Origin: Acidobacteriota bacterium
GTDB lineage: Bacteria; Acidobacteriota; Thermoanaerobaculia; Gp7-AA8
Reading direction: 5' to 3'
Length of the DNA stretch: 64,000 bases
Assembly: GCA_019244185.1 (NCBI GenBank)
Contig: JAFATB010000014.1
Coordinates: forward strand, 544,001-608,000
The translations under genes were made by a program, and so were the position numbers. Position 1 is the stretch's first letter, and the number at the start of each line of letters is the position of its first letter. Positions 2,749 to 49,127 of the stretch are shown in pieces. Below the pieces are notes generated by a model. It had not been told where the DNA came from. It ran no database searches and saw nothing but the letters and a program-made list of their open reading frames with translations.

Positions 2749-3753
2749 ATGAAGAAACTCGGTGTCGCGGCGGCCATGATGCTCTGCGCGTTCGGCGCAT
2801 CCGCGAGTAACTTCCGCGGTGCGGACCAGGTGTATTTGCCGGTCGCCGGTCACGTGGGTGGTTCGAGCGGTACGTTCATCTCGGACGTGTATCTGTCGAA
2901 CCTCAGCCAGACCGAAGACGTCGACGTGTCGGTGATCTATCAGCCGATCGGCGAAGGTGGCGGCTCGGGAACGGAGTTCAAGAACGTCATCACGCTCACG
3001 GCCGGTGAGCGTCGCGAGATCACGGACTTTTTCCCGACGGTTCTCGGCCAGAACGGCTACGGACAGCTGATCTTCAACGGCTGCCTCAAGGGCGCGAACT
3101 GCGGCCCCGAGACGCAGGACGACAACGGCAACAGCCCGAACTATCGCGCCATCAGCGCGGAGAGCCGCATTTATCAGATCCCGAACGGCGGCTCGGTCAA
3201 CGACGGCACCACGGGCCAGCTCTTCTCCGGCATTCCCTGGTACAACTTCGTGAGCTCGCTCCAGAGCGCGCAGGGTCTCGACAAGATCTTCATCACCGGC
3301 ATCCGCCAGACCGGTCTCGCCGGAGCCGCTGGCACGTTCCGCACGAACATCGGCCTCGTGAACGCGTCGCAGTACAACACGACCGAGATGGTCGTCACGC
3401 TCTATCAGGGTTCGACCAGCGCGACCAGCAAGAAGGGCGAGTATCACCTCGACCTCGGCCCGCTCGGCAGCGTGCAGAAGGGCTTCGGCGAGATGTTCGG
3501 CAACGACATCACCGGCACGAACTTCTTCGTCACCGTCGAGCAGCGCAACAACCGCCCGAGCCCCGATTCGCCGAGCGGCTGCACGCAGGGCTGCCCGGCC
3601 TTCCTCGCGTACGGCTCGATCCTCGACAACAAGTCGGGTGACGCGACGACGCTCGAAGCGCAGTACATGCAGGCGCTCTCGCCGGAAGCGATCACCGTCA
3701 TCTACCCGAACGGCTCGGGCAAGACGCTGATGCACCGCAGCGTGCACCACTAA
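2749..3753 (+). CDS. Secreted protein made of one uncharacterised ~230-300 aa beta module, ending in HRSVHH
   Basis: RBS AAGGGGAG; signal peptide MKKLGVAAAMMLCAFGASA; motifs YLPVAGH..SDV..N, FRTNIGLVN and AYGSILDN..GD are shared with the C-terminus of 41462-47755. Confidence 0.85.
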   Translation: MKKLGVAAAMMLCAFGASASNFRGADQVYLPVAGHVGGSSGTFISDVYLSNLSQTEDVDVSVIYQPIGEGGGSGTEFKNVITLTAGERREITDFFPTVLGQNGYGQLIFNGCLKGANCGPETQDDNGNSPNYRAISAESRIYQIPNGGSVNDGTTGQLFSGIPWYNFVSSLQSAQGLDKIFITGIRQTGLAGAAGTFRTNIGLVNASQYNTTEMVVTLYQGSTSATSKKGEYHLDLGPLGSVQKGFGEMFGNDITGTNFFVTVEQRNNRPSPDSPSGCTQGCPAFLAYGSILDNKSGDATTLEAQYMQALSPEAITVIYPNGSGKTLMHRSVHH

Positions 3754-3777
3754 GATCCTTTCCCGGGACGTTGACGC

Positions 3778-3807
3778 AAGGCCGCGCCGAGAGGCGCGGC
3801 CTTTTTT
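3778..3807 (+). terminator. Intrinsic terminator
   Basis: AAGGCCGCGCC-GAGA-GGCGCGGCCTT followed by a T-run. Confidence 0.85.
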
Positions 3808-3822
3808 GTACCATTGCGCCGC

Positions 3823-4554: not shown

Positions 4555-4652
4555 CCGGCGAGCCGTTTCCGGGAATCGTCCCCGGGAAGCCTCTGTTGTC
4601 GGCAAACGCAGTGCTGTGTTAGTCTTCGACGGCTTTCGAGCAACACCTTTCG

Positions 4653-4679: not shown

Positions 4680-4683
4680 GTTG

Positions 4684-5160: not shown

Positions 5161-5164
5161 CGGG

Positions 5165-9693: not shown

Positions 9694-9700
9694 TGCGTCA

Positions 9701-14974: not shown

Positions 14975-15904
14975 ATGATGGAGCAGAAGAAAAGCGTCGA
15001 CGGCGTGGTGCTCGTCGACAAGAAAGCGGGCATCACTTCCCACGACGTCGTCGAGACGTTCCGGCGGCGCGCGAAGATCAAGAAAGTCGGCCACACCGGC
15101 ACGCTCGATCCGCTCGCGACGGGCCTCCTCGTGCTGTGCGTCGGCAAGGCCACGCGCCTGCAGGCGTATCTCATGGGGATGGAGAAAACGTACGAGGGCA
15201 CGATCCAGTTCGGTTGGGCTACCGACTCGTACGACTCCACCGGCACGCCCGCGGGCGAAGCGGTCGAAACGGATGTGACCCACGTCGACTTCGCGCCGCT
15301 CGTCGACCGCTTCCGCGGCGAGATCGAGCAGATGCCACCCGCGTTTTCGGCGAAGAAGATCGACGGCGTGCGCGCGTACGAGCTCGCGCGCAAAGGCGAG
15401 GAAGTCAAACTGCAGCCGAAGCGCGTGACCATCTACGACTTTGAGCTGCTGCGCGTCGACGGCTCGCGTCTCGATTTCCGCGTGCGTTCCTCCGCCGGCA
15501 CGTACATGCGCTCACTCGCGCACGACCTCGGCCAGGCCGCCGGCATTCCCGCGCATCTCTCCGCGCTGCGCCGCACCGCCATCGGCAACTTCCGCGTCGA
15601 CGACGCGCTGCCGTACGACCGCGCCGCCGAATCGAACCTCGACGTGCTGCTCGCGAAACCGCACTTCCAGTCGCTCGCCGAGATCGACCTGCCGCTCGAG
15701 AAGCTGCGCATCGACTGGCCGCAGCAAGCCCGCCTTATGCAAGGCCAGCCCGTGATCATGGTCCCGCGCGTCCCTGTCCGCAAAGGCGATCTCCTCGCCC
15801 TCGGCAATCCGCACGATCAACTCGTTGCGATCGCCGAGGTGGTGAACGTGCTGCGGGAGGGCGGCCCGGTCGAGGTCAGGCCGAAGGTGGTTCTGGCGGG
15901 GTGA
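14975..15904 (+). CDS. truB: tRNA pseudouridine(55) synthase TruB
   Basis: KVGHTGTLDPLATG, PPAFSAKKIDG and SAGTYMRSLAHDLG motifs. Confidence 0.96.
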   Translation: MMEQKKSVDGVVLVDKKAGITSHDVVETFRRRAKIKKVGHTGTLDPLATGLLVLCVGKATRLQAYLMGMEKTYEGTIQFGWATDSYDSTGTPAGEAVETDVTHVDFAPLVDRFRGEIEQMPPAFSAKKIDGVRAYELARKGEEVKLQPKRVTIYDFELLRVDGSRLDFRVRSSAGTYMRSLAHDLGQAAGIPAHLSALRRTAIGNFRVDDALPYDRAAESNLDVLLAKPHFQSLAEIDLPLEKLRIDWPQQARLMQGQPVIMVPRVPVRKGDLLALGNPHDQLVAIAEVVNVLREGGPVEVRPKVVLAG

Positions 15905-16232
15905 GGGATTCGAGTTGTTCGAGGAGTTGCGGCACGGACACGGTGGCTGCTTTCCAGACGATATCCAGATTGATCGCGAAGTAATCGTGCACGAGCCGGT
16001 GCCGCATGCCGATGATGTCGGCCCACGGGATCTCGGGATGCGCGTCGATGAACGCGCGCGAGATGCGGCGCGCGGCTTCGCCGATGCTCTGGATCGCATG
16101 AGTCAGCGCAAATTGCAGCTTGACGTCGTCGTCGAGGCGCTCTCTCGTGGCGCCGGCGACGAGCGTCATCACGACGTGCGACAGATCGCGAATGTGGCCG
16201 AGAAAGACGCTGTCGTCAGTCCTGTTCGACAT
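15876..16232 (-). CDS. HepT-like (DUF86/HEPN) ribonuclease toxin
   Basis: IGEAARRIS...PEIPW..I.GMRHRLVHDY (RX4H motif followed by Tyr). Confidence 0.9.
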   Translation of the reverse strand: MSNRTDDSVFLGHIRDLSHVVMTLVAGATRERLDDDVKLQFALTHAIQSIGEAARRISRAFIDAHPEIPWADIIGMRHRLVHDYFAINLDIVWKAATVSVPQLLEQLESLTPPEPPSA

Positions 16233-16536
16233 ACTCGGGAATCGCCTCGCCGAGGACTCCGGCGCGCACCCAGCGGTTAATGCCGTCGAACGTGCCGAGG
16301 TCGACGCGCCGGCCGCCCAGGATCTGTGAGAGCTCGTTCGGGATCGTGCCGAAGAACTCCCAGCCCGGAATCCGATCGGGTTTGAACTCCACCAGCACAT
16401 CCACATCGCTCTCCGGCCCGAAGTCGTCGCGCACGACGCTGCCGAAGAACGAGAGCTTGCGGATGCCCCACTTGCGGCAGAATGCCGCGATCTCCTCGTG
16501 GGGGATTGGGATGGCGAGGGAGCGGGTGGCGGCCAC
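16216..16536 (-). CDS. MntA-like minimal nucleotidyltransferase antitoxin
   Basis: FGSVVRDDFGPESDVDVLVEF (GSx10DxD); overlaps the HEPN gene. Confidence 0.9.
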   Translation of the reverse strand: MAATRSLAIPIPHEEIAAFCRKWGIRKLSFFGSVVRDDFGPESDVDVLVEFKPDRIPGWEFFGTIPNELSQILGGRRVDLGTFDGINRWVRAGVLGEAIPEYVEQD

Positions 16537-24869: not shown

Positions 24870-27269
24870 TCAGCGCACCGCGCGGCGCCGCGTCGGCAGC
24901 ACGATCGCGGGCGTCGACGCGGGACCCACGCCGGCGTCGTTGAACGCGCGGACGCGCAGGCCGACGACGACGCCGGTGAATCCGAAGCGGATCGTGGCGG
25001 CGTGCGTGTTCGCGTCGTACCACCCTTCGACTTCGTTCCAGGTGCCGTCGTTGATGCGGTACTCGATGCGATAGCCGTTCACGGGCTGCGACGGTGCGGT
25101 CCAGTCGACGGTGATCAGGCCGTCGTGCGGCGTCGCCGAAACGCGCGGCACGACGGGCAGCTCGGGCAGCGGAATCGAGTCGGCGATCTGCATCACGATG
25201 CGCCGCGAGCCGTGATGCGGCGCATCGGGCCGCGGTGCGATCGTGATGAGCGCAGCGTTGCCGTCCGGCAGCGCGGTCCATTGCGCGGGAGTATCGGCCG
25301 CGTACGTCGTGCGCAGGGTGACGGTGCCGTCGTGCGCGAGCAGCACGGCCTTTCCGTGATGCGTGATCCCGACGCCGCCGCTCACGGCCCGCACGATCGC
25401 CGCGTTCGTGTAGCGCGGTTGGTCCTGAAGAACAGAGACGGGAGCCCCGACCTTTGTCCCGTCGGCTCCGATGCGTTGCATCAGCTCCTCGGTACCCCTC
25501 TGCCAAACGGCGACGAAGGACTCTCCGTCCCACGCCACGCCGCCCGCCAAATCGATCTCGTCATCGAGAAGGATGGCCGTTCCATCGATGGGCTGGAGAG
25601 CTGGCGTGAGGCGGACCGCCTCGAGGCGAGAAGTTCCCACGTTACAAATCAGGCCGCAGTGCTCGTACGTTTTGCTCCAGACCGCGAGCAGCTCTGTGCC
25701 GTTGAAGGCAATCGTCGCGTCAAAGGGAACGATGTCGTCGACGGTATGCTGGAGAAGGACCGGCGGGAGAAGCGTACCGGAGGGTGTGATCTCGGCGCCG
25801 AGGAGATTGAGCGTGAGGTCGAACCCGACACCATCGGGCGCATCGTCATCCGCCCATCCGACCACGACGTAGCCGCGGCCGTTGGCGGCGAGATCCATCG
25901 GCTCAAATGGCAAGGGACCGGTGGTCCCGGTGAGACGTCCCCGCGAGTCGAAGACGCGGACGACATATTCAAATGACGCATTGCGTACCACGAGCGCGAA
26001 GCCGCTAACGTCGCTCGCAGCGATGAGCGGCGTCTCTCCGTTAGCGACGACGCCCTCAGTCCAGCTTCCGTCACGCTGCCGCAGGCCGATATGCAGTTTG
26101 TTCTCGTCATCCGGCGACTCGTTCCATGCGACGAACGTCGTGTCCGCCGAGGACGCCGCGACGCTGTTCTGTTGATCGGTCGCCGCGATCGCCGCCGGCG
26201 TGCCGTTGCCGGCAGCGGACGCATTGCGCACGACGATGGGGTTGACCGACTCGTACGTTCTCCAGGCGATCGTGACCGCGCCGTTCACCGCGGCGAGACT
26301 GGTCATGGTGTCGAAGTTCACTGCCGCGGTGGGCTCGTTCGCGACGACACGGCCGGCCGTTGCATCGACGCGAACGATCCGCACCTCGTATGATTCCGCG
26401 CCCACGGCGACATACGCCACCGTGTACGACGAGCCGTTCCACACGACGGATGGACTATTGAACGGCACGGTATAAGCCGTCGTGGGCTCCGCGAGCGAGA
26501 ATCTCGGCTCGACCACACCGTCCCGGCGCACGCGCGCCGCGCTCACCTCGCCCAGCTTGTTCGTCCAGACGGCGAGCGCGTCGGATGGGCCGCTCGCGAT
26601 GGCGACACCCGTCGGCTCGAACCCGGACAAGACGCCAGTCTGCGACTCCAGCAGTCCGTTCGCCGTGTACTGAAGCACGCGCACGACGCCGTCGTGGATG
26701 CCGACTCCGGCAAAGCGGCTGCCGTTGGCGGTGAGTTGCTGCGGCCCGTGCGTGGCGGTGCCGTACGGGTCGTTCGTCGCCTGGCCGCTCAGCGTCAGAA
26801 GTTGCGATCGCCATTCGAAGCCGTAGAGGTACGTGAGCAGGAGGTTCTGGCCATTGCTCGCCAGCGCCGGCGCGGAGCCCTGCGTCAGCACGAACGCGGG
26901 GCCGAGCGGCTCGCCGGTCGTGCCGTCGAGGAGGCGGCCATAGATCGTGTACGGATCATTGGTCGCGGTTGCCGCGAGCAGGAACTGCGTGCCGGTCCAC
27001 ACGATCGCCGCCTGATTCGTGGCCGGAAACACCAGCCGTCCGACGCGCTTCTCGCCGTGAGCCAGACGCGTGAAGCGCAATCCGTCCAGCGTGTTCCAGA
27101 GGAGGAAGACGTCGCGGCCGTTGGCGACGAGCTGCGGCCGCGCGTCGTACGCGCCGTAGCGTGTATTCGTGAGGGGAAAGGGGGCGCCGAGGTGCGTGGG
27201 TTGGGCCGTGAGCGTCGTTGCGAGAACGAGCGTGAAGAGCGCGGCGACAGCGGTACGCAGATGCGGCAT
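24870..27269 (-). CDS. Secreted beta-propeller-like repeat protein with C-terminal FN3, ending in RRRAVR
   Basis: Signal peptide; repeats of P.(V/I).W(N/D/T)G..(F/Y).V.W; FN3-like VDWTAP..GYRIEY...RVRAFNDAG.G. Confidence 0.8.
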   Translation of the reverse strand: MPHLRTAVAALFTLVLATTLTAQPTHLGAPFPLTNTRYGAYDARPQLVANGRDVFLLWNTLDGLRFTRLAHGEKRVGRLVFPATNQAAIVWTGTQFLLAATATNDPYTIYGRLLDGTTGEPLGPAFVLTQGSAPALASNGQNLLLTYLYGFEWRSQLLTLSGQATNDPYGTATHGPQQLTANGSRFAGVGIHDGVVRVLQYTANGLLESQTGVLSGFEPTGVAIASGPSDALAVWTNKLGEVSAARVRRDGVVEPRFSLAEPTTAYTVPFNSPSVVWNGSSYTVAYVAVGAESYEVRIVRVDATAGRVVANEPTAAVNFDTMTSLAAVNGAVTIAWRTYESVNPIVVRNASAAGNGTPAAIAATDQQNSVAASSADTTFVAWNESPDDENKLHIGLRQRDGSWTEGVVANGETPLIAASDVSGFALVVRNASFEYVVRVFDSRGRLTGTTGPLPFEPMDLAANGRGYVVVGWADDDAPDGVGFDLTLNLLGAEITPSGTLLPPVLLQHTVDDIVPFDATIAFNGTELLAVWSKTYEHCGLICNVGTSRLEAVRLTPALQPIDGTAILLDDEIDLAGGVAWDGESFVAVWQRGTEELMQRIGADGTKVGAPVSVLQDQPRYTNAAIVRAVSGGVGITHHGKAVLLAHDGTVTLRTTYAADTPAQWTALPDGNAALITIAPRPDAPHHGSRRIVMQIADSIPLPELPVVPRVSATPHDGLITVDWTAPSQPVNGYRIEYRINDGTWNEVEGWYDANTHAATIRFGFTGVVVGLRVRAFNDAGVGPASTPAIVLPTRRRAVR

Positions 27270-27328
27270 GACGAGCAATATATGTGGTTATGCCATAAAG
27301 CGCCAGCCCCACCTACAATACGCGCCGC

Positions 27329-31515: not shown

Positions 31516-34500
31516 ATGCTCGCCGAGCTGCTTCTGAAGTGGCCGTTGCTCCGCCAGATGCGCGGCGGCGGCGACGGCACCGGTGCCGAGGCGCTGAGCG
31601 AGCGGACGCGAGGACTGCGCAAGAAGAATGAAGAGACGCAGGTCGCGCGGTCGATTTGTCCGTATTGCGCCGTCGGTTGCGGACAGCTCGTCTTCCACCG
31701 CGAGAACAAAGTCGTCAGCATCGAAGGCGATCCCGCGTCGCCGATCTCGCGCGGACATCTGTGTCCGAAAGGCGCGGCGAGCCACGAGCTCGTAACGCAC
31801 GCGGGACGCGCGACGAAGGTGAAGTACCGCGCGCCGTACGCGAGCACGTGGAGCGAGCTCGATCTCGAGACCGCGACGGCGATGGTCGCGGATCGCATCT
31901 GGGATTCGCGCAACCGCACCTTCGACGCGGATGCGAATCACACCACCGGCGTCGCGCACCTCGGCGGTGCGACGCTCGACATCGAAGAGAACTACCTCAT
32001 CAAGAAACTCTTCACCGCGGGACTGGGGATGGTCTGCCTGAGCAATCAGGCGCGGATATGACACAGCTCCACGGTGCCCGGTCTGGGCACCTCCTTCGGC
32101 CGCGGCGGCGCAACGACCGCGCAGCAGGACCTCGCCAACGCCGATGCGATTTTGATCATGGGCTCCTCGATGGCCGAGAACCATCCGGTCGGCTTCCAGT
32201 GGGTCATCGAGGCGCGCGAGAAAAACGGCGCGAAGATCATCCACGTCGATCCGCGCTTCACGCGCACGTCCGCGATGGCGGACTACTGGCTACCGCTGCG
32301 CGCCGGCAGCGATCTGGTCTTCCTCGGCGCGCTGATCAACTATGTAATTAGTAGCCAGCGCGAGTTCCGCGAGTACGTCGTGCACTACACGAACGCCGCG
32401 ACGATCCTGCGCGAGGACTTCCGCGACGCCGACGACCTCGGCGGCGTCTTCTCCGGCTGGGACCCGGAGACGAAGACCTACGATCCGACGACGTGGCTCT
32501 ACGAGGGTGCGAAGCCGGAGCCCGCGCCGGGGATGGATCCGAAGGCGGGAGGTCACGGAAAAGACCGCGGCGGCGAATCGCAGAACGACGAGAAGCCGCG
32601 ACGCGACGAAACGCTCGAGCATCCGCGCTGCGTCTTCCAGGTGCTCAAGCGCCACTTCGCGCGCTACACGCCGGAGCTCGTCGAGCAAGCGTGCGGCATT
32701 CCGCGCGACGCGTTCCTCGAGATCGCCGATGTCTACACGAGCGCGTCCGGTCCCGAGAAAACGGGCGCGATTTGCTACGCCGTCGGCTGGACGCAACACT
32801 CGACGGGCGTGCAGACGATTCGCGCCGCATCGATCCTGCAGTTGCTCCTCGGCAACATCGGACGTCCCGGCGGCGGCATCATGGCGCTGCGCGGACACGC
32901 GTCGATCCAGGGCTCGACCGACATCCCGACGCTGTACGACATCCTGCCCGGCTATCTGCCGATGCCGGTCGCGGAAGATGCAGACCTGCACGCGTACCTG
33001 AAACGCAACCAGTCGCCGAAAGGCTGGTGGTACAACATCGACAAGTACATGATCTCGCTGCTCAAGGCCTACTACGGTGAGGCCGCGACGCGCGAGAACG
33101 ATTTCGGCTTCGCGTGGTTGCCGCGCCTCACCGGCGATCATTCGTACTTTGCGTACTCGTTCGACATGGCGGACGGCGCGCTCGAAGGGCTGATCGTCAT
33201 GGGACAGAACCCGGCGGTCGGCTCGCCGAACGCGAAGCTGCACCGCGAAGGGTTCGGCAAGCTGCAGTGGCTCGTCGTGCGCGACATGGTCGAGATCGAG
33301 ACGGCGACGTTCTGGCAGGACTCGCCCGACACGATCGGCACGGAAGTCTTCTTCTTCCCCGCGGCGTCGCACGTCGAGAAGGAAGGGACGTTCACGAACA
33401 CGCAGCGCCTGTTGCAGTGGCGCGAGAAAGCGGTCGAGCCGCCCGGCGACGCGCGCAGCGAGCTGCACTTCGTCATCGATCTCGGCCGGCGTCTGAAAGC
33501 GCGCGCGACGAACGCGGCGCGCGACGCGGGACTGCGCGCGCTGACGTGGGACTACGCGGATGAAGACGCCGACGAAGTGCTGCGCGAGATCCACGGCAGT
33601 CCGCACATCAAGCACTTCGGCGAGTTGAAGAACGACGGCTCGACGTACTGCGGCTGCTGGATTTACTCCGGCGTGTACGACGGAAAGAACCGCGCGAACG
33701 GTCGCGAGCCTCGCGGACGCTACGGCCACGGCTGGGGCTACGCCTGGCCGCTCGACCGGCGGATTCTCTACAACCGCGCGTCCGCGCGTCCCGACGGCGC
33801 GCCGTGGAGCGAGCGCAAGGCGCTCGTGTGGTGGGACGAGGCGAAGGGCGACTGGACGGGACACGACGTCGCCGACATCACGCGCGGCAAGCGTCCCGAC
33901 TACGTGCCGAACGACGAGAAAGGCGGCGACGAGGCACTGCCCGGCATCGCGCCATTCATCATGCATCCCGACGGCATGGGCTGGCTGTGGGTGCCGTCGG
34001 GCTTGAAGGACGGTCCGCTGCCGGTGCACTACGAGCCGCTGGAGTCGAACGTGCGCAATCCGCTGTATCCGGAGCGGCAGACGAATCCCGCGGCGCAGGC
34101 GTTCGAGCGCGATGACAACGTCTACGCGAGCTCGCCCGATCCGCGGTTTCCGTACGTCCTCACGACCTACCGCCTGACGGAGCACCATACGGCAGGAGGG
34201 ATGTCGCGCACGCTCTCCCACCTGGCGGAACTGCAGCCGGAGCTCTTTGCGGAACTCTCTCCGGAATTGGCGCGGGAGATCGGCGTGGCGAACGGCGACG
34301 TCGTGATCGTCTCGACGGCGCGTGCATCGATCCGCGCGCGTGCGCTGGTGACGACGCGCATGCCGTCGCTCGACGTCGCCGGACAGCGCGTGCATCAGGT
34401 CGGCCTGCCGTATCACTGGGGACCGAGCGGCCTCGCAAAAGGGGACGTCGTCAACGACCTCCTCGCGATCTCCGAGGAGCCGAACGTGAGGATCTTCGAA

Positions 34501-34536
34501 TCGAAGGGACTCACGTGCAAGGTCGAGCGCGCCTGA
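31516..34536 (+). CDS. fdnG: Formate dehydrogenase alpha subunit, selenocysteine-containing (UGA at 32059-32061)
   Basis: CPYCAVGCG 4Fe-4S motif; NQARI-UGA-HSSTV stays in frame with the downstream ORF; ALRGHASIQG; SECIS follows. Confidence 0.93.
32062..32091 (+). promoter_or_regulatory. Bacterial SECIS element
   Basis: 11 nt after the UGA: stem GGTGCCC-GGTCT-GGGCACC, resembling the fdh SECIS apical loop. Confidence 0.88.
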
Positions 34537-34575: not shown

Positions 34576-36543
34576 ATGCGTGCCCCCGTGCTCCTCGTTC
34601 TCCTCGCCCTGTTCTCGTTCGTCTCCGTGCTTCACGCCGCGGAGATTCCCGTCTCGGAGACGGTGCAGTACGTTCCCGATCCCGGCGACGACGTCTCGCG
34701 ATTCGTTCCTCAGGTTGCGGCGGGGGATGGATTTCTCGTCGTCTGGGAAGACCGGGTGTTCGCCGGCTATCCGGGCGACGTGCACATTCGCGCGTATGAC
34801 GATGATGGCGCGCCGCGCACACCCGCGGCGACGGTCATCGACAGCGGCCATTCGGCACACGTCGTATGGACCGGCAGCGACTATCTCGTCGTATACGCGA
34901 AGTGGCTCCCGCCCTTCGGCAGTCCGTTTCCGCTGCCGCTCTTCGTGGCGGTGCGCGTGCGCGCGGATGGCTCCGTCGTCGAAGGCTCGCGCGTGGTGGT
35001 TCGCGAAGGTCGCGCAAACGGCGACATCGTGAGTCTGGTGTGGACGGGCGAGAACGCGATGCTGCTCACGAGCGAGCTCGATGGCGCCGGACTCTACTCG
35101 CTCGATGCGTCGGGACATCCGATCGGCGACGCCAGCGCGTCCGTGCGCACGCATCCGCCGGTGGCGATCGCCGCGGCGCCCGGCGCACCGCTCTACTACC
35201 TCGCGCCCGAACGCGGCGACGTCGCGGCGGTGCGGCCGGGCGAGATCGCGGTGCTCGACGACACGGTGCTCGGCACGATCGCGGCGCTTTACGACCTGCA
35301 GGGAGCAGTCGTCGACGCATTCCTGCTCGACGCGGTGCACGGTATGCGCTCGCTCGTGTGGGACGGCGCGGCGTGGGAGGGCGTCTACGCGACGAGCGAT
35401 TCCATCTGCACGGTGCGCTTCACGCGCGCGTCGGACGTCGCGACGCAATGCACCGCCGGCGGTGTGCATCCGCAAACGCCGTCGATCGCCGCGGGACGGA
35501 CGCGCACGTTTCGCGCGTGGACGGAAGGCGACACGCAGTACTCGATCGGCGGTGCACGCGTGATGACCGACAGCGGCATCGCGTCCGTCTCCGTCGCGAA
35601 GAAACGGTTGCCGGCGGCGACTGTCGATGCGAGCGGTCTGCTCGTGGCGTGGATCGAAGCGGAACTCGTCCACATCGGCGGCCTCGCGAACGACGGCAAC
35701 CGCCGCGCGGAGGTCGTGCTCGACGGCGACGCCTCGCTCGTCGCACCGGCGATCGCCGCGGCAGGAACGCAGTCGCTCGTCGTGTGGAGCGGTGACGGCG
35801 AGATTCATGCGGTACGCCTCGACGCGTCCGGACATCCGCTGCCGCCATACCTCGACCTCGGCAGCGGCACGAGTCCCGCCATCGCGACGGATGGCGAGCG
35901 CTGGCTCGTCGCGTGGCAGCGCGACGGCGAGATCGCGACGACGATCGTGTCGGCGAACGGCGATCCGAACGGCGTGTTCGCATTCGCCAGCGACGCGCAG
36001 CCATCGACGCCGTCGGTTACGTTCGCCGACGGGCGCTATCTCATCGTGTGGCGCGAGAACGGCGTCGAAACGACGACCATCGCGGTGGCCGCGCTCGATC
36101 GCAACGGCGCGTCGATCTCCGGAACGGTGCGGCATACCGAGGAAGGACTCACGAGTGGACATCCGCCGGCGATTGCATGCAGCGCGAACGGCTGTCTCGT
36201 CACGTGGTTCGAGCTGACGACGTCGACGCTGCTCGGCGCGGCGCTGTCGCTGGACGGCACGACGCTCGGCGAGCCGCACGCGCTCCTGCCCGGCGACGCA
36301 TTCGCACGCACGATCATCGTCGCGCAGAGCGACGGCACGTTCCGCGTGTACGAGCGCAATCGATACGCGATCGTCGGGCGTGACGCGTCAGTACTCGGCT
36401 CCGCGACGTGGATTGCTGACGATCCGAGTCTCGTGCTCGGCGCGGTGCTTCCGTTCCGCGCGAACAGCGTCGCCGTGTACGAGCGCGCCGGCCCCATTTA
36501 CGTCCGCGACTTCGCGGCACGGACGCGTGCGGTTCGTCATTGA
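34576..36543 (+). CDS. Secreted beta-propeller-like repeat protein ending in RTRAVRH
   Basis: Signal peptide ending VLHA; repeats such as VVWTGSDYLVVY, PAIATDGERWLVAW and PSVTFADGRYLIVW. Confidence 0.8.
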   Translation: MRAPVLLVLLALFSFVSVLHAAEIPVSETVQYVPDPGDDVSRFVPQVAAGDGFLVVWEDRVFAGYPGDVHIRAYDDDGAPRTPAATVIDSGHSAHVVWTGSDYLVVYAKWLPPFGSPFPLPLFVAVRVRADGSVVEGSRVVVREGRANGDIVSLVWTGENAMLLTSELDGAGLYSLDASGHPIGDASASVRTHPPVAIAAAPGAPLYYLAPERGDVAAVRPGEIAVLDDTVLGTIAALYDLQGAVVDAFLLDAVHGMRSLVWDGAAWEGVYATSDSICTVRFTRASDVATQCTAGGVHPQTPSIAAGRTRTFRAWTEGDTQYSIGGARVMTDSGIASVSVAKKRLPAATVDASGLLVAWIEAELVHIGGLANDGNRRAEVVLDGDASLVAPAIAAAGTQSLVVWSGDGEIHAVRLDASGHPLPPYLDLGSGTSPAIATDGERWLVAWQRDGEIATTIVSANGDPNGVFAFASDAQPSTPSVTFADGRYLIVWRENGVETTTIAVAALDRNGASISGTVRHTEEGLTSGHPPAIACSANGCLVTWFELTTSTLLGAALSLDGTTLGEPHALLPGDAFARTIIVAQSDGTFRVYERNRYAIVGRDASVLGSATWIADDPSLVLGAVLPFRANSVAVYERAGPIYVRDFAARTRAVRH

Positions 36544-41461: not shown

Positions 41462-44400
41462 CTACTGCGCCGGGATGTAAGTCGGTGCCTGCGTCTGCAT
41501 GTCGACCACCGAGCCGTACGCGGTGACGCGGCCGTCGCCGTCGACGACGCGAACGGTGATGCGCGCGTTGTAGATGTTGTCGAGCCCGAAGCTGGTGAGG
41601 ATCGGGATCTGCGTCGACTGGAACGGCGCGAGCGGCACGGTGACGACCGGCGTGATCTTCGAGTCGGGCAGCACGACGGAGACTTCGACCGTCGCGGCGT
41701 GACCGGTGACTTCCGCGAGTCCGAGGTTCGTGCGATAGCGCACCGATTGCTCGGCCTGCAGGATCTGCAGCGTGCGCTCGCCGCTGCCGACCGCTTCGCT
41801 CGGGGTGACGGCGGGGATGAGCTGGCCGAGCGTGCCGCCGGCGGTCTCGTCGTACGTGCGGCCGGTGACGATGAGCGGCGCCGGCGCCGGCGTCGTCACA
41901 TGCACGGCGCCGCCGATGTTCGCGACGCCGAAGAAGGACTGCAGCACGTCGTCGAGCGCTTTCACTTCACCAGGATTCACGGTGAGCGTCTGCGAGGACG
42001 GCGGCGCCGCGGGATCGTTCGGGAAGAACGTGAGCGTCGCCGGCTGCGGCTGCATGCTGCTGTTGAAGATGCGCAGGTCGGTGCGCCAGTGCGCGATGCC
42101 GGTGTCGAGGTTCGCGACGCCGGGCACGATGAAGCGCGTGGCGCCGTCGCTGCCGAGGCGGACGCCGCTCGCGAGCATCGGATCGTTGCTGGCGTTGTCG
42201 ATGACGGACGCGTACGCGGTGACGAGTCCCTCGCCGTCGGTGACCTGCACTTCGACGTGGCCGTTCGCGAGTGAGAGATTGTTTGCGGCGAGGAAGCCGT
42301 TGAGTTGGCGCTGCTCGCCTGCGTTGAGCGAGACCGGAACCTCGAGCAGGCGGTTGCCGCTGCCGTCGAAGACGCTGACGAGGACGTTCGCGGGTTTGCC
42401 GGCGGATTCGACGAGGCCGAGGTTCGTGCGGTAGCTCCCGTTCTGCGCGATCTGCTGCAGCGCGAGGATCGAATGCGTCGCGGCGCCGATGAAGTCGCGG
42501 AAGGGAACCGCGGGGATGAACTGGCCGAGCGTGCCGCCGCTGGCGAGGTTGTACGTACGGCTGGAGACGATTGCGCCGAGCGCGGCGTCGGCGGACAGCG
42601 GCTCGATGACGAGCGTGCCGTTCGACGAATCGCCGAGCGAGCCGATGCCGTACCAGTTGCGCACGATGTCGTCGAGCGCCATCGTCGCGCCGGCATCGAC
42701 GGTGACGATCGTTTCGCGGACGCCGTCGGACGGATCGCCGGTGCCGCGATTGAACGAGAGCCGGAACTGCTGTGCGAGCGCGCCGGTGTTCGCGAGCCGC
42801 ACGTCGCTCTGCCAGTTCGAGTTGACGCCGGCGAGATGGCCGACCGCGGGAATCACGAGTGCGTTGCTGCCTGGAGTCGTGAGCGGCGCGGGATCGACTG
42901 GCGTGACGAGGCTGATCGAGATCGGGATCGAAAGCGTGGTCGAGCCTTGCGACGTCAGGCGGTCGTTCACGCGGACGTCTCCGTAGACGACGAAGATCGT
43001 GCCGGTCCACGTGCCGTTGGGCAGTGACGTCGGATCGGCGGAGATCGTGAGCAGGAGTCCGTCGGGCGTGATGATGCCAGACGTCGGCGTCACGGAAAGC
43101 CACGGCTTGTCGACGGTGGCGATGAACGACGTGCTGCCGGCGGGGAGGCCAGGCACGAAGACCTGGAACGTCACCGCGTGCGTGCTGCCGGCGGGCGCGA
43201 CGACGCTGTGATCGACGCCGCGCGGATCGGGCAGCGGAACGATGACGATGCTCGACGCCGCGGAGAATCCGGCGCTCTGGCCGCACGCGGCGACCCCGCG
43301 CACGCGGTAGAAGAAGCGTTTGGCCTGATCGACGTTCTTCGTGAACGCGCGCGTGTTGCCTTGGACAGTGAACGTGACTGCATCGTCGAACGAATCGCTC
43401 GTCGCTTCCTGCAGTTCGAACGTCGCGCTGCTGTCGGTCGAACTCCACGTGACGTTGTACGTCTGGCCCGTCGTCGCTTCGCCGACGACGCTGACGACCG
43501 GCTTCGGCGGCGTGTTGCAGACGACGAACGGCGACGGCGTCGACGTGATCGAGCCGCAGCCGCTGTCGCCGATCGCGGTGACGCGCGCCGTGTAGGCGCC
43601 ATTCGGCAGCGCGGCGGTGACGAACGGATCGAACGTCGTGAGTACGATCGGAGCGCCGCTGCCCTGAATCGTGACGGTGTAGCTCGTCGCGGCGGCGACG
43701 GGAGTCCAGCGGAACGTGACCGGCGACGTCACCACTGCATCGGCGGCGGGGCTGGTGAGCACCGGCACGTCGCTCGGGCACGTGACGATCTGCAGCGTGC
43801 TCGAGCGCGTGTTGTTCGATGCAACGGGATCGGCCTCGGCGCCGGACACCGTGGACGTGTCGACGATGGTCGTGGACGTCGTCGCGGAGACGAGATACGT
43901 CGTCGTGATGACGGTGCTTAGCGTGGCGTTCAACGTGCCGAGGCTGCAGGGATATGGCGTCGTACAGGCGCCGCTGTTCGAGACGAACGTGAGGCCGGCG
44001 GGCGTCGGATCGCTGACGACGACAGCGGTGGCGTTCGCGGGTCCGTTGTTCGTGACGGTGATGGTGAACGTCACGTGGTCGCCGGGCGCGGCCTGGCTTG
44101 GACCGATGCGCGCGATGGCGAGATCGGCGCTCGCCGGCGGAGGCGGCGGGCCGGTGACGGTGGTCGTCGCGGTGCTGCTGTTGTTCGCGCTGTTGGTGTC
44201 GGGCGTGGAACTGCTGACGGTGGCGGTGTTCGCAACCGAGCCGCTCGCGTAGCTCGCCGGCACGTTGTAGGTCGACGTGATCGTCGCGGTCTGACCGGCG
44301 GTGAGCGTGCCGAGGCCGCACGGATACGAGTTCGTGCAGGCGCCGCTGTTCGCAACGAACGTCACGCCGGCCGGCGTCGGATCGTCGACGAAGATGTTGT

Positions 44401-47400
44401 TCGCGGCGAGCGGCCCGTTGTTCGTCACGGTGATCGTGTACGTGACGTTCTGTCCCGCGGTGACGCTGGGCGGGCCGCTCTTGATGAGCGAGAGATCGGC
44501 GTCGTTTGCGGTGGGCGTCACGTGCGTGGTCGCGCTCGCGGAGTCGTTCGAGTTGTCGGGATCGCCGGTCGTGCTCGAGACGGTCGCGGTGTTCGTCACG
44601 TTGCCGTTCAGCGAGACGTCGGAGGAGTAGGTCGAGGTGATCGTCGCCGACTGACCGGCGGTGAGCGTGCCGAGGGTGCAGGGATAGGTGCTCGTGCACG
44701 CGCCGCTGTTCGAGACGAACGTGAGACCGGCGGGGGTCGGATCGCTGACGATGACGTTGTCAGCCGTCGACGGTCCGTTATTCGTCACGGTGATCGTGTA
44801 GGTGATGGGCTGGCCGGCGACGGCGTTCGCGGGGCCGGTCTTGCTGAGGAGCAGATCGGCTTCGGCGATGACGGTCGTGGTCACGCTGTCGGAGTCGTTG
44901 GCGTTGTTCGCGTCGTTGGCGGACGACACCGTCGCGCTATTGGAGACGTTGCCGCCGCTCGCCGGCGCGGTCATCGAAATCGTGAGCGTCGGGAACTGCG
45001 CGGCGTTCGCTATCGACGACGAGGTCGTGCACGTAATCGTGGTCGTCGCGGCGCCGCAGCTCCAGCCGCTGCCGTTCGCGCTGACGCCGGTGGCGCCGAT
45101 CGGCAGCGTGTCGACGACAGTGATCGTGCCGCTGGTCGTGTCGGGACCGTTGTTCGTGATGGTGATGTCGTAGCTGAGCGGCGCGGCGGCGGTGACCGAC
45201 GCGGGACCGCTCATGCTCATCGCGAGATCGGCGCTGCTCGGCGTCACGACGGCGGTGAGCACGAGCGACGTCGGCGTGTAGTTCGACGTGATCGAGCCGT
45301 GCCCGCTCGCGTAGGTCGGGTAGTTCCGCGTGGCGAAGTCGCCGCTGCGCGACGCGAAGGTCAACACTGTAAACGTCTGGGCGTTGGCCGGCTCGTAGCC
45401 GCCGATGAGCGTGACGTCGTGCGTGCCGTCGAGCGTGGCCGAGCCGGAGACGGCCAGCACGTCGTACGACGCCGCGGAGGCGAGCTTCGTCGTCAGCGTG
45501 CCGCCGCTTTGCTGCGTGTAGCTGCCGGTGACGTTGATCGTGCCGGTGCTGCCGGTGTCGCCCGGCGCGACGTCGCCGCCGTTGTCGACGTCGCCGTCGA
45601 TCGTGCCGCTGCCGGTGAGCGAGCCGCCGCTCATCGCGAGCGACGACGCGACTTCGATGTCGCCGCCGTCGAGCGTGGTCGTGCCGCCGGATTGATCGTA
45701 CGTCGAGAGGAAGTTCAGCGTGCCGCTCGAGGCGAGGACCGTCCCGTCGTTGGAGAACGCGGCCTCGATGTCGCTCGTGCCGCCGCCACCGCTCTTCTCG
45801 AACGTCGCGCCGCTGTTGTTGTCGATCTCGCTGGCGAACGACACGAGATCGGCGGCGAGGCCGCGGTCGTGGTGCCGCGCACGCGCGGCGGCGGACGCTT
45901 CGTTCGCGACGCGCGCGGCGATCGGCGTCACGGCGCTCGCGTGGATGGCCTGGTCGGCCTGGATGTCGAAGGTGCCGTAGTTGTCGACGAGCGCCGCGTT
46001 CGCGAACGTGAGGCTATTCGTCGTGGCCGTGTACTGCACCGTACCGTCGTTGCGGAAGTAGAGTCCGTCGAGCGTGACGTCGGCGTTCGCGGCGTCGATG
46101 ACGAACGTGGCGTTCGTGCCGACGGTGACGCTGCCGCTGCCGTCGAGCGTGCCGGCCGACCACGTGCCGCTGCCGGTGATCGTCAGCGCGTCGTTGAGCG
46201 GCACGGTCGTGCTGCCGCCGTCGAACGTGAAGACGTTCGTGCGCGCATCATCCGCGAACGTCACGCTGCCGCCGCGCACCTCGGTCGTCCCGCCGACGTC
46301 GAAGTAGCCGTTGATACTCGCCGTGCCGCGGAACGTCAGCGTGCCGTCGCCGCCGAACGAGGAGCTGTTGGTGAACGTGTCGCTGCCGGTGAAGACCAGC
46401 GCATTGCCGCTGCCGAACGCGTTGAAGGAGCCGTTGTGCGTGCCGCCGCCGTCGAACTGCAGCGTGCCGCTGAAGGTGTATGCAGTGGCGTTGTTGTCGA
46501 GCGGCGGAGCGATGGTCATCGTGCCGGAGCCGCCGCTCTTTTCGAGGACGCCATTCGGCGCGACGAGGAACTTCGCGGGCGTCGTGCCGGCGATCGTGCC
46601 GTCGGTCTCGACGTCGAACGTGCCGTAGTCGGCGAAGAGCGCGCCGTTCGCGAGCTGCAGCGGATTGGGGCTCGGCTGGTAGTCGATGACGCCGTAGTTG
46701 TTGAAGGTCTTGTTGTCGAGCACCATCGTGCCCGCGGTGCCGTAGAAATCGGCGCTGCCGGTGCCCGCGAGCTCCGCGGTGCCGCTGCCGGTGAGCGTGC
46801 CGCCGCGCCAGTCGAAGAAGTTCGTGACCGACAGAAACCCGGCGCCGGTGAGCGTGCCCGCGGTCATGTGCAGTTGATCGGGTTGCGTGACGCCGCCGGC
46901 GGAGAGCGTGCCGCCGCTGATCGAGAGCGTGCCGCTGCCGTTGATGATGCCGTTCGGCGTCGTCGTGTATGTGCCAGACGGGAAGTCGAGCGTCGCACCG
47001 TTGGCGAGGCTGAACGGGCCGTCGCCCGTGCCGCCGCCCGACAGCGACAGCTGCCCGGAGCTCACCGTGACGCTTCCCGTGCTGCCGACATTGAACGCGG
47101 CGCTGACGTTGTTCGTACCGTTCGCCTGCGCGATGCCGTTGTTCGTGACGCTGCTGCTGCCATCGATCGTGCCGCCGTTCAAATCGAGCGTCGCGCCGTT
47201 CTGGATCGTGAGGCCGGAGTTCACGGTCAGCCGGCCGCCGCTCATCGTGAGCGTGCCGCCGCTGAGGCTCTGCGCGGAGCTCAGCGTGGCGTGACCGCCG
47301 CTCTGCACGTCGATGCTGCCGCTCGTGAGGGCGAGCGTTGCGCCGCTCTGGAGGGTGAGGTTGCCGACGTTTGCGATCGTGAGCGTGCCGCCGCTGACTT

Positions 47401-47755
47401 GCAACGTGGCGCCGCTGCCGATGCTGGCACCGCCCGCCAGCGTCAGCGAGCCGCCGGGCTGCACGTCGATGACGCAGCCGGCGCAGTTCAGGTTGAGACC
47501 GATGATCGGGTTCGGGATGGAGCTGTTGACGACGATCGTCGTCGGCGAGGAAGGGACGACCTGCACGGCATCCCCCGGCGCGCAGCCCGGGAAGCCGCCG
47601 TTCGGCGTCCAGTACGTCGTGTCGGTCCAGTTCGCCGTGGGAGGTGGCGTGCCGGAGCGGCTGTAGATGGTGGGAACGCAGAACGCGGCGGCGATCGCGG
47701 CGAGCATCAACGACGCGAGGGTGATGCCGGCTGAAACGTAAACCTTCCTCGACAT
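41462..47755 (-). CDS. 2097-aa secreted surface protein: beta-helix-like G/T-rich repeats, 4 DUF11 domains, FN3/BACON-like domains and two C-terminal uncharacterised modules
   Basis: Signal peptide; four ADL...GP...YTITVTNNGP units; KPWLSVTPTSG; duplicated IP.V...W.(S/T)D.R..N / YRTNLGL / TAY.SV.D module. Confidence 0.88.
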   Translation of the reverse strand: MSRKVYVSAGITLASLMLAAIAAAFCVPTIYSRSGTPPPTANWTDTTYWTPNGGFPGCAPGDAVQVVPSSPTTIVVNSSIPNPIIGLNLNCAGCVIDVQPGGSLTLAGGASIGSGATLQVSGGTLTIANVGNLTLQSGATLALTSGSIDVQSGGHATLSSAQSLSGGTLTMSGGRLTVNSGLTIQNGATLDLNGGTIDGSSSVTNNGIAQANGTNNVSAAFNVGSTGSVTVSSGQLSLSGGGTGDGPFSLANGATLDFPSGTYTTTPNGIINGSGTLSISGGTLSAGGVTQPDQLHMTAGTLTGAGFLSVTNFFDWRGGTLTGSGTAELAGTGSADFYGTAGTMVLDNKTFNNYGVIDYQPSPNPLQLANGALFADYGTFDVETDGTIAGTTPAKFLVAPNGVLEKSGGSGTMTIAPPLDNNATAYTFSGTLQFDGGGTHNGSFNAFGSGNALVFTGSDTFTNSSSFGGDGTLTFRGTASINGYFDVGGTTEVRGGSVTFADDARTNVFTFDGGSTTVPLNDALTITGSGTWSAGTLDGSGSVTVGTNATFVIDAANADVTLDGLYFRNDGTVQYTATTNSLTFANAALVDNYGTFDIQADQAIHASAVTPIAARVANEASAAARARHHDRGLAADLVSFASEIDNNSGATFEKSGGGGTSDIEAAFSNDGTVLASSGTLNFLSTYDQSGGTTTLDGGDIEVASSLAMSGGSLTGSGTIDGDVDNGGDVAPGDTGSTGTINVTGSYTQQSGGTLTTKLASAASYDVLAVSGSATLDGTHDVTLIGGYEPANAQTFTVLTFASRSGDFATRNYPTYASGHGSITSNYTPTSLVLTAVVTPSSADLAMSMSGPASVTAAAPLSYDITITNNGPDTTSGTITVVDTLPIGATGVSANGSGWSCGAATTTITCTTSSSIANAAQFPTLTISMTAPASGGNVSNSATVSSANDANNANDSDSVTTTVIAEADLLLSKTGPANAVAGQPITYTITVTNNGPSTADNVIVSDPTPAGLTFVSNSGACTSTYPCTLGTLTAGQSATITSTYSSDVSLNGNVTNTATVSSTTGDPDNSNDSASATTHVTPTANDADLSLIKSGPPSVTAGQNVTYTITVTNNGPLAANNIFVDDPTPAGVTFVANSGACTNSYPCGLGTLTAGQTATITSTYNVPASYASGSVANTATVSSSTPDTNSANNSSTATTTVTGPPPPPASADLAIARIGPSQAAPGDHVTFTITVTNNGPANATAVVVSDPTPAGLTFVSNSGACTTPYPCSLGTLNATLSTVITTTYLVSATTSTTIVDTSTVSGAEADPVASNNTRSSTLQIVTCPSDVPVLTSPAADAVVTSPVTFRWTPVAAATSYTVTIQGSGAPIVLTTFDPFVTAALPNGAYTARVTAIGDSGCGSITSTPSPFVVCNTPPKPVVSVVGEATTGQTYNVTWSSTDSSATFELQEATSDSFDDAVTFTVQGNTRAFTKNVDQAKRFFYRVRGVAACGQSAGFSAASSIVIVPLPDPRGVDHSVVAPAGSTHAVTFQVFVPGLPAGSTSFIATVDKPWLSVTPTSGIITPDGLLLTISADPTSLPNGTWTGTIFVVYGDVRVNDRLTSQGSTTLSIPISISLVTPVDPAPLTTPGSNALVIPAVGHLAGVNSNWQSDVRLANTGALAQQFRLSFNRGTGDPSDGVRETIVTVDAGATMALDDIVRNWYGIGSLGDSSNGTLVIEPLSADAALGAIVSSRTYNLASGGTLGQFIPAVPFRDFIGAATHSILALQQIAQNGSYRTNLGLVESAGKPANVLVSVFDGSGNRLLEVPVSLNAGEQRQLNGFLAANNLSLANGHVEVQVTDGEGLVTAYASVIDNASNDPMLASGVRLGSDGATRFIVPGVANLDTGIAHWRTDLRIFNSSMQPQPATLTFFPNDPAAPPSSQTLTVNPGEVKALDDVLQSFFGVANIGGAVHVTTPAPAPLIVTGRTYDETAGGTLGQLIPAVTPSEAVGSGERTLQILQAEQSVRYRTNLGLAEVTGHAATVEVSVVLPDSKITPVVTVPLAPFQSTQIPILTSFGLDNIYNARITVRVVDGDGRVTAYGSVVDMQTQAPTYIPAQ

Positions 47756-47861
47756 GGCTGAGCTCCTTCCGGGTCGAATGGCGGCAACGATGTGCGGAGG
47801 GGACCGGCCGCGAATCTATCACACGCAATGTGGCAGCCCGGTTGCAGTTGAGCGACGCATC

Positions 47862-49127
47862 ATGTCCCGCTCCGCGGCCGTTGCCACTCTCGCGTTTCTC
47901 CTTGCAGTTCCGGCACTTGCGGCAACGCGGATGACCTACGACATCCACGGCACGCCGACGCCCATCGAGTGGTCGCCGACGGCCTTTCCGCTCCCGTACA
48001 CGATCGATCAGCGTGTGGTGCAGGCCGACGCCGACGCGCCGGCGATCATCGACCGCGCGTTCGCGGCGTGGGCCGCGGTTCCCGACGCGCAGCTCTCGTT
48101 CCAGTCGCGCGGGACGACCAGCGGCTCGCTCACGCGCACCGCGGGCGGCGTGACCATCTCGCTCGCCGACGATCTCTTCCGCGATCAAGGCGCGCTCGCG
48201 TTGACGACGTACACCTTCGGCGACGACGGACGCTACGTCGACGCCGCGATCCAGATCGATCCGTCGCTCTTCCACGGCAACTGGAACGCGCAAATGGCGA
48301 TCGAGCACGAAGTCGGTCACGTCCTCGGACTCGATCACTCCGGCGTGCTCTCCGCGATCATGTATCCGTACGTCGCGACGGGAGCCGGTGCGCCGGTGCT
48401 CGACAGCGACGACCGCATCGCCATCGTGACGACGTATCCGAAGAGCGATCAGGTGCGCGACGGCGCGACGCTCGAAGGCCGCGTGGTCGGTGACGGCGGC
48501 GGCATCTTCGGCGCGCAGGTCGTCGCCCTCAACACGCACGGCGAGCCGGTCGCGACGGTGCTCACGGACGCCTCGGGCGATTTCACGATCGCCGGCATTC
48601 CGGAAGGACGTTACCGCCTCTATGCGGAACCGCTCGACGGGCCGATGCTGCCCGACTCGCTCCAGGGCTCGTGGCGGCAGGCGAAGGCGAACGCGTTCCC
48701 GACGAAGTTCTTCGACGGCGGTGCGATGGACGTCCAGAACGGACGCGTTTACGGCAATCTCATGCTCGGCGCCGCCGGTGTCTCACAGCTCAACCCGCGC
48801 TGGGTCGGCTGCACGAAGCCGGACGCGAACGCGATCAGCCTCTCCAGCGCGCCGGTCAGCGTGAAGCCGGGGGATACGTTCCGGCTCGCGGTCGGCGGCG
48901 ACGGCTTCACCAGCGGCATGACGCAGTTCGAAGTGACGAACCCCGCGTTCCGCCGCACCTCGGATTTCTCGTGGCAGTCGAACTACATGACCGCGACGTT
49001 CACGGTCGATCGCGACGCGGAGCCGGGCTCGGCGGTCATCCTCGTGAGCAGCGGCAACGAGACGGCGACGCTCACGGGCGCGCTGCGGATCGAGGGTCTG
49101 ACGAAAGCGCGTTCCGTAAGGCATTGA
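47862..49127 (+). CDS. Secreted matrixin-like (metzincin) metalloprotease with a carboxypeptidase-regulatory-like domain, ending in KARSVRH
   Basis: HEVGHVLGLDH plus Met-turn SAIMYP; TDASGDFTIAGIPEGRY; signal peptide. Confidence 0.88.
   Translation: MSRSAAVATLAFLLAVPALAATRMTYDIHGTPTPIEWSPTAFPLPYTIDQRVVQADADAPAIIDRAFAAWAAVPDAQLSFQSRGTTSGSLTRTAGGVTISLADDLFRDQGALALTTYTFGDDGRYVDAAIQIDPSLFHGNWNAQMAIEHEVGHVLGLDHSGVLSAIMYPYVATGAGAPVLDSDDRIAIVTTYPKSDQVRDGATLEGRVVGDGGGIFGAQVVALNTHGEPVATVLTDASGDFTIAGIPEGRYRLYAEPLDGPMLPDSLQGSWRQAKANAFPTKFFDGGAMDVQNGRVYGNLMLGAAGVSQLNPRWVGCTKPDANAISLSSAPVSVKPGDTFRLAVGGDGFTSGMTQFEVTNPAFRRTSDFSWQSNYMTATFTVDRDAEPGSAVILVSSGNETATLTGALRIEGLTKARSVRH

Follow-up and report, generated by a model that had tools for sequence, protein, structure and literature searches.

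In a 64,000-nucleotide stretch of the genome of an uncultured soil acidobacterium, four genes for exported proteins share a short basic peptide that is encoded right before the stop codon. This stretch, hereafter called the window, corresponds to G000:C4:544001-608000. The genome (5.30 Mb in 26 contigs, 67% GC, 98.9% complete) belongs to the class Thermoanaerobaculia of the Acidobacteriota. We give an even chance to the view that, in one Thermoanaerobaculia clade, this tail serves Sec-exported proteins as a short linear tag at the C-terminus, used for addressing or docking. This view is based on the residue-specific conservation of the tail, its lineage dialects, its strict terminal position, its exoenzyme cargo and its equivalence in position to other C-terminal modules on related enzymes. 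The tail would be read by a protein, and surface or extracellular targeting would be the outcome. The four proteins and their features are the following, with signal peptides recognized by eye.

2743..3753 (frame 2701/2743-3753), plus strand: P0001, exported two-beta-sandwich protein of unknown family, ending KTLMHRSVHH
~2743-2811, plus strand: signal peptide of P0001
3733..3750, plus strand: P0001 tail HRSVHH, immediately 5' of the stop codon 3751-3753
24870..27278, minus strand: P0002, exported repeat protein with a C-terminal fn3-like domain, ending LPTRRRAVR
~27278-27201, minus strand: signal peptide of P0002 (5' end of the gene)
24873..24890, minus strand: P0002 tail RRRAVR, immediately 5' of the stop codon 24870-24872
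34576..36543, plus strand: P0003, exported repeat protein and distant P0002 relative, ending FAARTRAVRH
34576-34641, plus strand: signal peptide of P0003
36520..36540, plus strand: P0003 tail RTRAVRH, immediately 5' of the stop codon 36541-36543
47754..49127, plus strand: P0004, exported M10 (matrixin) metalloprotease with a CarboxypepD_reg domain, ending GLTKARSVRH
~47862-47927, plus strand: signal peptide of P0004, whose probable start is the Met at 47862
49104..49124, plus strand: P0004 tail KARSVRH, immediately 5' of the stop codon 49125-49127

A preliminary description of the window had pointed out these four C-termini, and translation of the frames confirmed their sequences and stop positions. 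Its further statements that all four proteins carry an N-terminal signal peptide, that no cytoplasmic or polytopic protein of the window ends in this way and that three families are concerned proved correct. Among the 46 gene calls touching the window, these four alone have matching ends. P0002 and P0003 are linked by weak repeats (BLASTP E=1e-4), while P0001 and P0004 are each unrelated to this pair. The length of six to seven residues given for the motif was too short, since two more upstream positions belong to it (see below). The P0001 end, HRSVHH, is a diverged version of the RRSVRH found in its family. No Pfam or NCBIfam match was obtained for P0001. Its AlphaFold2 (AF2) model, with a predicted local distance difference test (pLDDT) value of 90, consists of two beta-sandwiches, and the tail is modelled as disordered, with low pLDDT. 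Comparison of this fold with the PDB using Foldseek gave weak matches only, with template modelling (TM) scores of at most 0.2 (RbmA, Bap, arrestin-like), and thus no convincing structural relative.

To place these ends in the context of the whole proteome, genes were called with a codon log-likelihood model trained on long frames with high GC at third codon positions (GC3), which gave 4452 genes covering 92% of the genome. Twelve proteins end exactly in VRH, versus ~0.6 expected from the internal frequency of this tripeptide. The pattern [RKHQ][ASG]V[RH][HKRP]? directly followed by a stop is found in 28 of the 4452 genes versus 48 of 38303 non-gene open reading frames. Going by internal frequency, ~1.7 matches should occur. 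When the last ten residues were shuffled, 200 rounds yielded 3.07 matches on average and never more than 9. Two to three variants come on top of the 28 strict matches. The full logo is [PG]-[RK]-[RHQ]-R-[ASG]-V-[RH]-[H or end]. In an alignment centred on the Val, two positions outside the search pattern stand out, namely V-4 (R/K in 25/28) and V-5 (P/G in 18/28). Within the pattern, R is found in 25/28 and R/H in 28/28 tails, and [ASG] and V in 28/28 each, both being fixed by the search itself. The V-2 Arg is never substituted by Lys in the 28 tails. The 6-mer [RK][RHQK]R[ASG]V[RH] occurs 26 times proteome-wide, 20 times at 0-1 residue from the C-terminus and 6 times internally. After the post-Val R/H there is no further residue in 9/28 tails and one in 19/28, and up to 4-5 are found in relatives.

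Of 979 soluble proteins with a signal peptide, 8.9% have a net charge of at least +3 over their last eight residues, versus 9.7% of 2517 signal-peptide-negative ones. As this charge is equally common with and without a signal peptide, the tail is a protein-level motif and not an effect of composition. The tails are encoded by varied synonymous codons, each of the three stop codons occurs among them, and unrelated sequence follows the stop. This synonymous variation together with the differing downstream DNA indicates that selection acts on the protein. The opposite behavior is displayed by another recurrent ending of this genome. Six unrelated cytoplasmic proteins end in NEERRTQNAE with near-identical codons, and here a conserved inverted repeat, AT-richer in composition, reaches over the stop codons with its left arm (G000 C26:429452-432616, C2:206981-208522, C2:243423-244517, C26:364476-365513, C2:116344-117198 and C7:287502-287945). 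This inverted repeat is probably a terminator-like or repetitive extragenic palindromic (REP)-like element.

The carriers of the tail are exported proteins. According to a crude rule, by which 32% of all proteins are positive, a signal peptide is present in 26/28 carriers versus 1394/4424 background proteins (Fisher p=2e-11). The two proteins missed by the rule are P0003, whose signal peptide is obvious, and the 3' part of a frameshifted BNR-repeat gene. By eye, signal peptides are seen in 27/28, the 28th being this frameshifted gene, a BNR/sortilin protein (G000 C11:127936-129102 plus upstream sequence) whose N-terminal repeats continue upstream in another frame. The N-termini look like classical type I signal peptides, with a lipobox in one or two cases. 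The carriers are typical exoenzymes and adhesin-like proteins, with more than 15 domain architectures. Five of the nine S8 subtilases of the genome have the tail, and a sixth ends in PPKRRSAR, a V-to-A variant. The other enzymes include a PL8 polysaccharide lyase, a GH44 hydrolase, a GDSL lipase, an M10 metalloprotease and a pyrroloquinoline quinone (PQQ) sugar dehydrogenase. Two BNR/sortilin proteins, proteins with HYR, PKD, Calx-beta, CARDB or TIG/DUF11 domains and several without a known family complete the set. A hydrophobic 19-residue window near the C-terminus is present in 0/28 carriers, and a scan for a C-terminal helix followed by a basic cluster retrieved 21 other proteins and none of the 28. 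The NCBIfam and Pfam sorting models gave no match on any of the 28 carriers, an eight-residue motif being hardly scorable by a profile.

The tail is conserved in homologous proteins. For P0001, 803 database homologues were found at E<=1e-5, and the tails of the best 120 (59-100% identity) were examined. Of these, 108 end in the motif, 70 of them in exactly RSVRH. The V-2 Arg is present in 120/120, and the frequencies of the next residues are 0.82 for S, 0.90 for V, 0.88 for R and 0.90 for H. The three columns preceding the tail have an entropy of 2.7-3.0 bits versus a protein-wide mean of 1.08. The V-3 and V-4 positions are often non-basic in this family (I, V, S or T), as in TSIVRSVRH. Judged from these alignments, selection on the tail is residue-specific and goes beyond charge. 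For P0002, 19 distinct tails from same-genus homologues (27-38% identity) are mostly [KR]RR[AS]VR. All three P0003 homologues (32-34% identity) end in R[AS]VRH, and all 12 same-genus homologues of P0004 (56-64% identity) end in R[AS][VA][RG][HKQ]. The PQQ dehydrogenase has kept the tail in 11/11 readable same-genus orthologues (62-71% identity), with RRRGVRH, RRRAARH, KKRSVRH, KRRAVRR and others, and with a variable linker before it; a twelfth orthologue is unreadable because of an internal stop. The relatives retrieved with one of the tail proteins are metagenome-assembled genomes from soil, labelled Thermoanaerobaculia, phylum Acidobacteriota. The unpublished genomes G002, G183, G117, G148 and G256 are single rows in the genome tallies, and G002 supplies one row each of the PQQ dehydrogenase and P0004 (L182) homologue sets. 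The conclusions are independent of these genomes.

The range of the strict tail was assessed by scanning 201 genomes of the class for DNA encoding R[ASG]VRH-stop, with a built-in control. In the genome studied here, this pattern has 9 matches versus 0, 0 and 4 for three permuted decoys. The counts within the family were as follows.

Own genus, 11 genomes: 103 matches, control 18
Second genus of the same family (g17), 13 genomes: 65 matches, control 10
Other genera of the family, 25 genomes: 62 matches, control 48

The class genomes outside the family have 0-3 matches each, except one with 7, and these counts are control-like. A scan of 301 genomes of the phylum revealed nothing notable beyond the class. 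The top count of 8 (G257) is mostly due to non-coding look-alikes, three with TGA and one with a Cys codon at the second codon and one ending in TGG. By these counts, the strict tail is restricted to one family-level clade, and looser forms extend further.

The looser forms are seen on P0001, a core gene of the clade that is single-copy in 47/48 genomes of the family (f1) and has the gene order RluD|P0001|(PilZ)|RimP-NusA in 14/14 genomes. Every f1 copy read, from 22 genera, ends in a basic tail. The form differs by genus: VRH, VKH, AKH, VKHQF, AKHIF, VNHP, ADHP, ATRRR, PVRR, LVRRQ, IRRAK, PARRP and SVGR were found. A neighbouring family, which belongs to the same order, has P0001 ending in RRAVRHR. 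In a third family it ends in RRPVRMPRR, and its homologues in two further families have no tail; f5 and f9 are examples of tail-free families. Distant representatives (40-56% identity) show the same spread of tails. This distribution indicates an old tag, present across at least the family to the order and split into lineage dialects. A separate dialect per lineage (VRH, VKH, AKH, VKHQF, PVRR) is what would be expected from co-evolution with a reader.

Several observations weigh against the tail being an address. A reader was found neither in the window, which contains mostly housekeeping genes (rimP-nusA-infB-rbfA-truB-rpsO-pnp and others) and no evident machinery, nor in the genome. The neighbours of the 28 tail genes comprise no meaningful recurrent family; those that recur belong to common families (crotonases, histidine kinases, GGDEF/PAS proteins, ATP-binding cassette (ABC) ATPases and alcohol dehydrogenases). 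Peptidase_C25, the gingipain/PorU family, was considered as a reader. Two strong genes of this family (262.8 and 252.5 bits) are present in the genome. They encode very large proteins, one with DUF11 repeats, and flank a type II/IV-pilus-like operon (G000 C26:8548-37186; T2SSF, T2SSE, secretin, pseudopilins and prepilin peptidase). The family is present in 100/201 class genomes, including families without the strict tail, and in 0/14 control genomes. Within f1 it is found in 32/48 genomes and not in 16/48, to be compared with P0001 homologues in 47/48, and no match was obtained in the tail-rich genomes G012, G132 and G065 (94-99% complete). Peptidase_C25 was rejected because its phyletic pattern is mismatched with that of the tail and not specific to the clade. 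Seven Rce1-like/CPBP genes are present in the genome, one of them two genes from P0001. This CPBP protease was rejected too, since such a gene lies within +-4 kb of P0001 in 0/14 relatives. No Peptidase_C11 gene was found in the genome, and for exosortase there is only a weak partial match (45 bits, 176-aa frame). The variable number of residues past the Val makes it unlikely that a pocket grips the free carboxylate in a fixed register. The rule behind the signal-peptide enrichment is crude, as mentioned above, and the consensus in this genome also fits a generic polyanion-binding pattern.

This last point leads to another explanation, which we judge unlikely. The tail could simply be sticky and, without any protein reader, bind electrostatically to lipopolysaccharide, acidic exopolysaccharide or extracellular DNA, so that exoenzymes are kept near the cell or loaded into vesicles. 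The Cardin-Weintraub heparin-binding consensus is defined by the spacing of basic residues, XBBBXXBX (also XBBXBX), and the consensus [PG][RK][RHQ]R[ASG]V[RH][H] of this genome has the XBBBXXBX spacing. Neither a reader nor a conserved neighbour was found, and retention would benefit the carrier enzymes. Electrostatic retention of the secreted lipase LipA by alginate is reported in PMC3733896. These cases and the tail have in common a basic cluster on secreted enzymes; the tail differs by its conserved non-basic residues and its strictly terminal placement. However, the P0001 family conserves R-S-V-R-H only, its upstream 'basic' positions often being I, V, S or T, and the XBBBXXBX spacing is absent from many orthologues such as the TSIVRSVRH form. 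Charge alone needs neither the conserved Val and small residue nor an Arg that is never a Lys. Moreover, exported proteins show no excess of generic basic C-termini (8.9% versus 9.7%), and binding to a polymer does not demand the strict C-terminal placement observed (20/26). Processing or transpeptidation is a distinctly unlikely alternative: an Arg-specific endopeptidase would cut after the invariant Arg, and the departure of 3-6 residues would serve maturation or transfer to a surface acceptor. The processing of type IX secretion system (T9SS) cargo by PorU and the asparaginyl ligases acting with short C-terminal tripeptides are precedents for this. The invariant Arg, with a small residue and then Val after it, would suit such an enzyme, and the two strong Peptidase_C25 genes lie beside the type II/IV-pilus-like operon. 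Against it, the distribution of this family is mismatched (no match in 16/48 f1 genomes and in the three tail-rich genomes named above), and Peptidase_C11 was not found in the genome. In several lineages Pro directly follows the Arg (RRPVRR, RRPARRP, RRPVRMPRR), a bond left uncut by most endopeptidases. The motif is also rarely internal (6/26), which does not fit a general maturation site.

A role other than sorting seems very improbable to us. A charged end could guard the periplasmic transit forms from tail-specific proteases, or tune folding or translation termination. This would be consistent with a tail that is at the extreme C-terminus, modelled as disordered and without a detected reader. 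However, such a role would require charge or other generic features and not an invariant R-small-V-R/K-H core that varies by lineage. Besides, only ~30 exported proteins have the tail, and these are of the exoenzyme or adhesin type, not exported proteins generally. The chance that the tail is an artefact, resulting from a high-GC Arg/Ala bias, a DNA repeat over gene ends or erroneous gene calling, is close to nil in our opinion. Arg-rich C-termini are indeed generally common in this 67% GC genome. However, the excess over shuffles, the terminal placement, the varied codons and the lack of a general enrichment of charge all contradict an artefact, as does the contrary behavior of the true DNA-repeat ending NEERRTQNAE. 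The tail is also kept in other genomes at 30-70% protein identity. Composition bias and a DNA repeat were thus tested as its origin and rejected.

If the tail is an address or docking tag, the following sequence of events can be proposed. The cargo would cross the inner membrane by means of its N-terminal signal peptide and then fold. The tail, with its invariant Arg, small residue, Val, Arg/Lys and usually His or the end of the chain, would be displayed on a short, flexible, Pro/Gly-rich linker. A dedicated envelope protein would bind it, either a receptor or part of a secretion system, such as the type II-like apparatus of this genome. This partner may route the cargo to the cell surface or hold it there. 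The preliminary description had interpreted the tail as a tag with one of three conceivable functions, outer-membrane translocation, covalent anchoring or surface binding. That part of the interpretation stands which concerns a protein-level motif, linked to signal peptides, helix-less, conserved and restricted to a lineage; the reading machinery that it also supposed was not found. None of the three findings that it had listed as contradicting the idea was made: the tail is enriched on signal-peptide proteins, it is conserved in orthologues, and it has no match to a sorting hidden Markov model. A more far-reaching proposal, possible but on balance doubtful, is that the tail serves as the cargo signal in a hitherto unknown sorting pathway of diderm bacteria, one that works without a helix. 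An envelope reader would recognize R-small-V-R/K-H at the free C-terminus and bring ~30 exoenzymes per cell to the surface, with dialects across at least the family and perhaps most of the Thermoanaerobaculia. A receptor, an adaptor of the type II-like secretion apparatus or an Arg-specific transpeptidase would then be the candidate readers.

A helix-less tag of 6-9 residues on ~30 exoenzymes per genome would, if true, amount to a class of address label not described before, and would allow the secretome and surface proteome of an abundant, uncultured group of soil Acidobacteriota to be predicted. The proteases, polysaccharide lyases, glycosidases and lipases bearing the tail are relevant to carbon turnover in soil. 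The tail peptide is a concrete bait for finding unknown machinery. It also suggests that such minimal tags are under-catalogued, profile models being unable to score them.

Additional features were observed in the window and in the genome. The P0003 gene sits within a formate-dehydrogenase-like operon, between a TGA-containing molybdopterin gene and the genes for Fer4_11 and NrfD subunits. The molybdopterin gene (window 31516-34536, plus strand) consists of a Molybdop_Fe4S4 frame and a Molybdopterin frame that form one gene across an in-frame TGA (32059-32061). The context of this TGA, NQARI-U-HSSTVPG, resembles that around the selenocysteine in alpha subunits of formate dehydrogenase. A HepT-like ribonuclease and a nucleotidyltransferase, a toxin-antitoxin pair of the MNT-HEPN type, are encoded between truB and rpsO (window 15876-16536, minus strand). 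Four giant signal-peptide proteins end in PTY[VI]PAQ after a conserved stretch of ~25 residues, possibly a separate C-terminal tag. One is DUF11-rich and encoded in the window (41462-47707, minus strand), and the others are located at G000 C2:135561-149384, C2:150424-154830 and C11:44260-49569. Seven signal-peptide proteins (G000 C7:246882-258323, C7:284500-286914 and C10:154856-156346) end in the beta-strand-like [IV][IV]DV[TF]GY[FY][KQ].

The tail can be compared with several known C-terminal signals. With LPXTG, PEP-CTERM, IPTL-CTERM, MYXO-CTERM and GlyGly-CTERM it shares the location at the extreme C-terminus, the many copies per genome and a few near-invariant residues. As in these tripartite signals, there is a basic cluster, and the carriers have N-terminal signal peptides and are otherwise unrelated. 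In contrast, the tail has no hydrophobic membrane-spanning segment, measures 6-9 residues versus ~25-35, and neither implies an intramembrane sorting enzyme nor led to the finding of one. Being without a membrane helix, it cannot act in the manner of the sortase, exosortase and myxosortase signals, whose cleavage takes place in the membrane or next to it. IPTL-CTERM itself is present in the same genome, with 8 TIGR04174 matches over the cut-off. Seven attributes of tripartite C-terminal sorting signals were taken from bioRxiv 10.1101/2023.06.07.544157 for comparison; the tail has six of these seven, the membrane helix being the one that it lacks.

The comparison with the T9SS C-terminal domain (TIGR04183 Por_Secre_tail) is of a different kind. 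This domain is folded and has ~70-100 residues, whereas the tail is a peptide of 6-9 residues, disordered in the model, and no tail protein gave a match with TIGR04183. Both are found in the same slot on orthologous enzymes and on the same types of cargo. Among PQQ dehydrogenases with an extension, from Bacteroidota-type and other records, the T9SS type A domain is over the cut-off in 12/13 tested. In those of Bryobacterales/Bryobacteraceae, Soli_cterm is found in 3/3 records, preceded in 2/3 by choice-of-anchor Z. Two other dehydrogenases from Thermoanaerobaculia have choice-of-anchor Z, one over and one just under the cut-off, and then a short basic tail. In the genome studied here, a choice-of-anchor Z domain (61.7 or 67 bits, cut-off 30) ends 18 residues before a tail. 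Going by these domain arrangements, the tail occupies the slot that is filled elsewhere by the T9SS domain or a different module of the C-terminus. The other choice-of-anchor Z domains of the genome yielded no clear example of IPTL-CTERM and the basic tail replacing each other.

Short C-terminal tags are well known in eukaryotes, such as KDEL, the PTS1 signal -SKL, CaaX and the C-end rule [RK]xx[RK]-COOH bound by neuropilin. Like these, the tail consists of a few terminal residues without a helix; the eukaryotic tags are read by receptors, and they belong to another domain of life and to other compartments. A homologue of such a receptor was not found, no search aimed at it having been made. 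The R-x-x-R form of the C-end rule fits the 9 tails that end at the post-Val R/H, whereas 19/28 carry one further residue. To our knowledge, the well-studied bacterial C-terminal sorting tags are of two kinds only, tripartite signals that include a membrane helix and entire folded domains. No description of a tail of this kind was found in the open-access literature searched. We place the basic tail within the known category of C-terminal sorting or retention tags.

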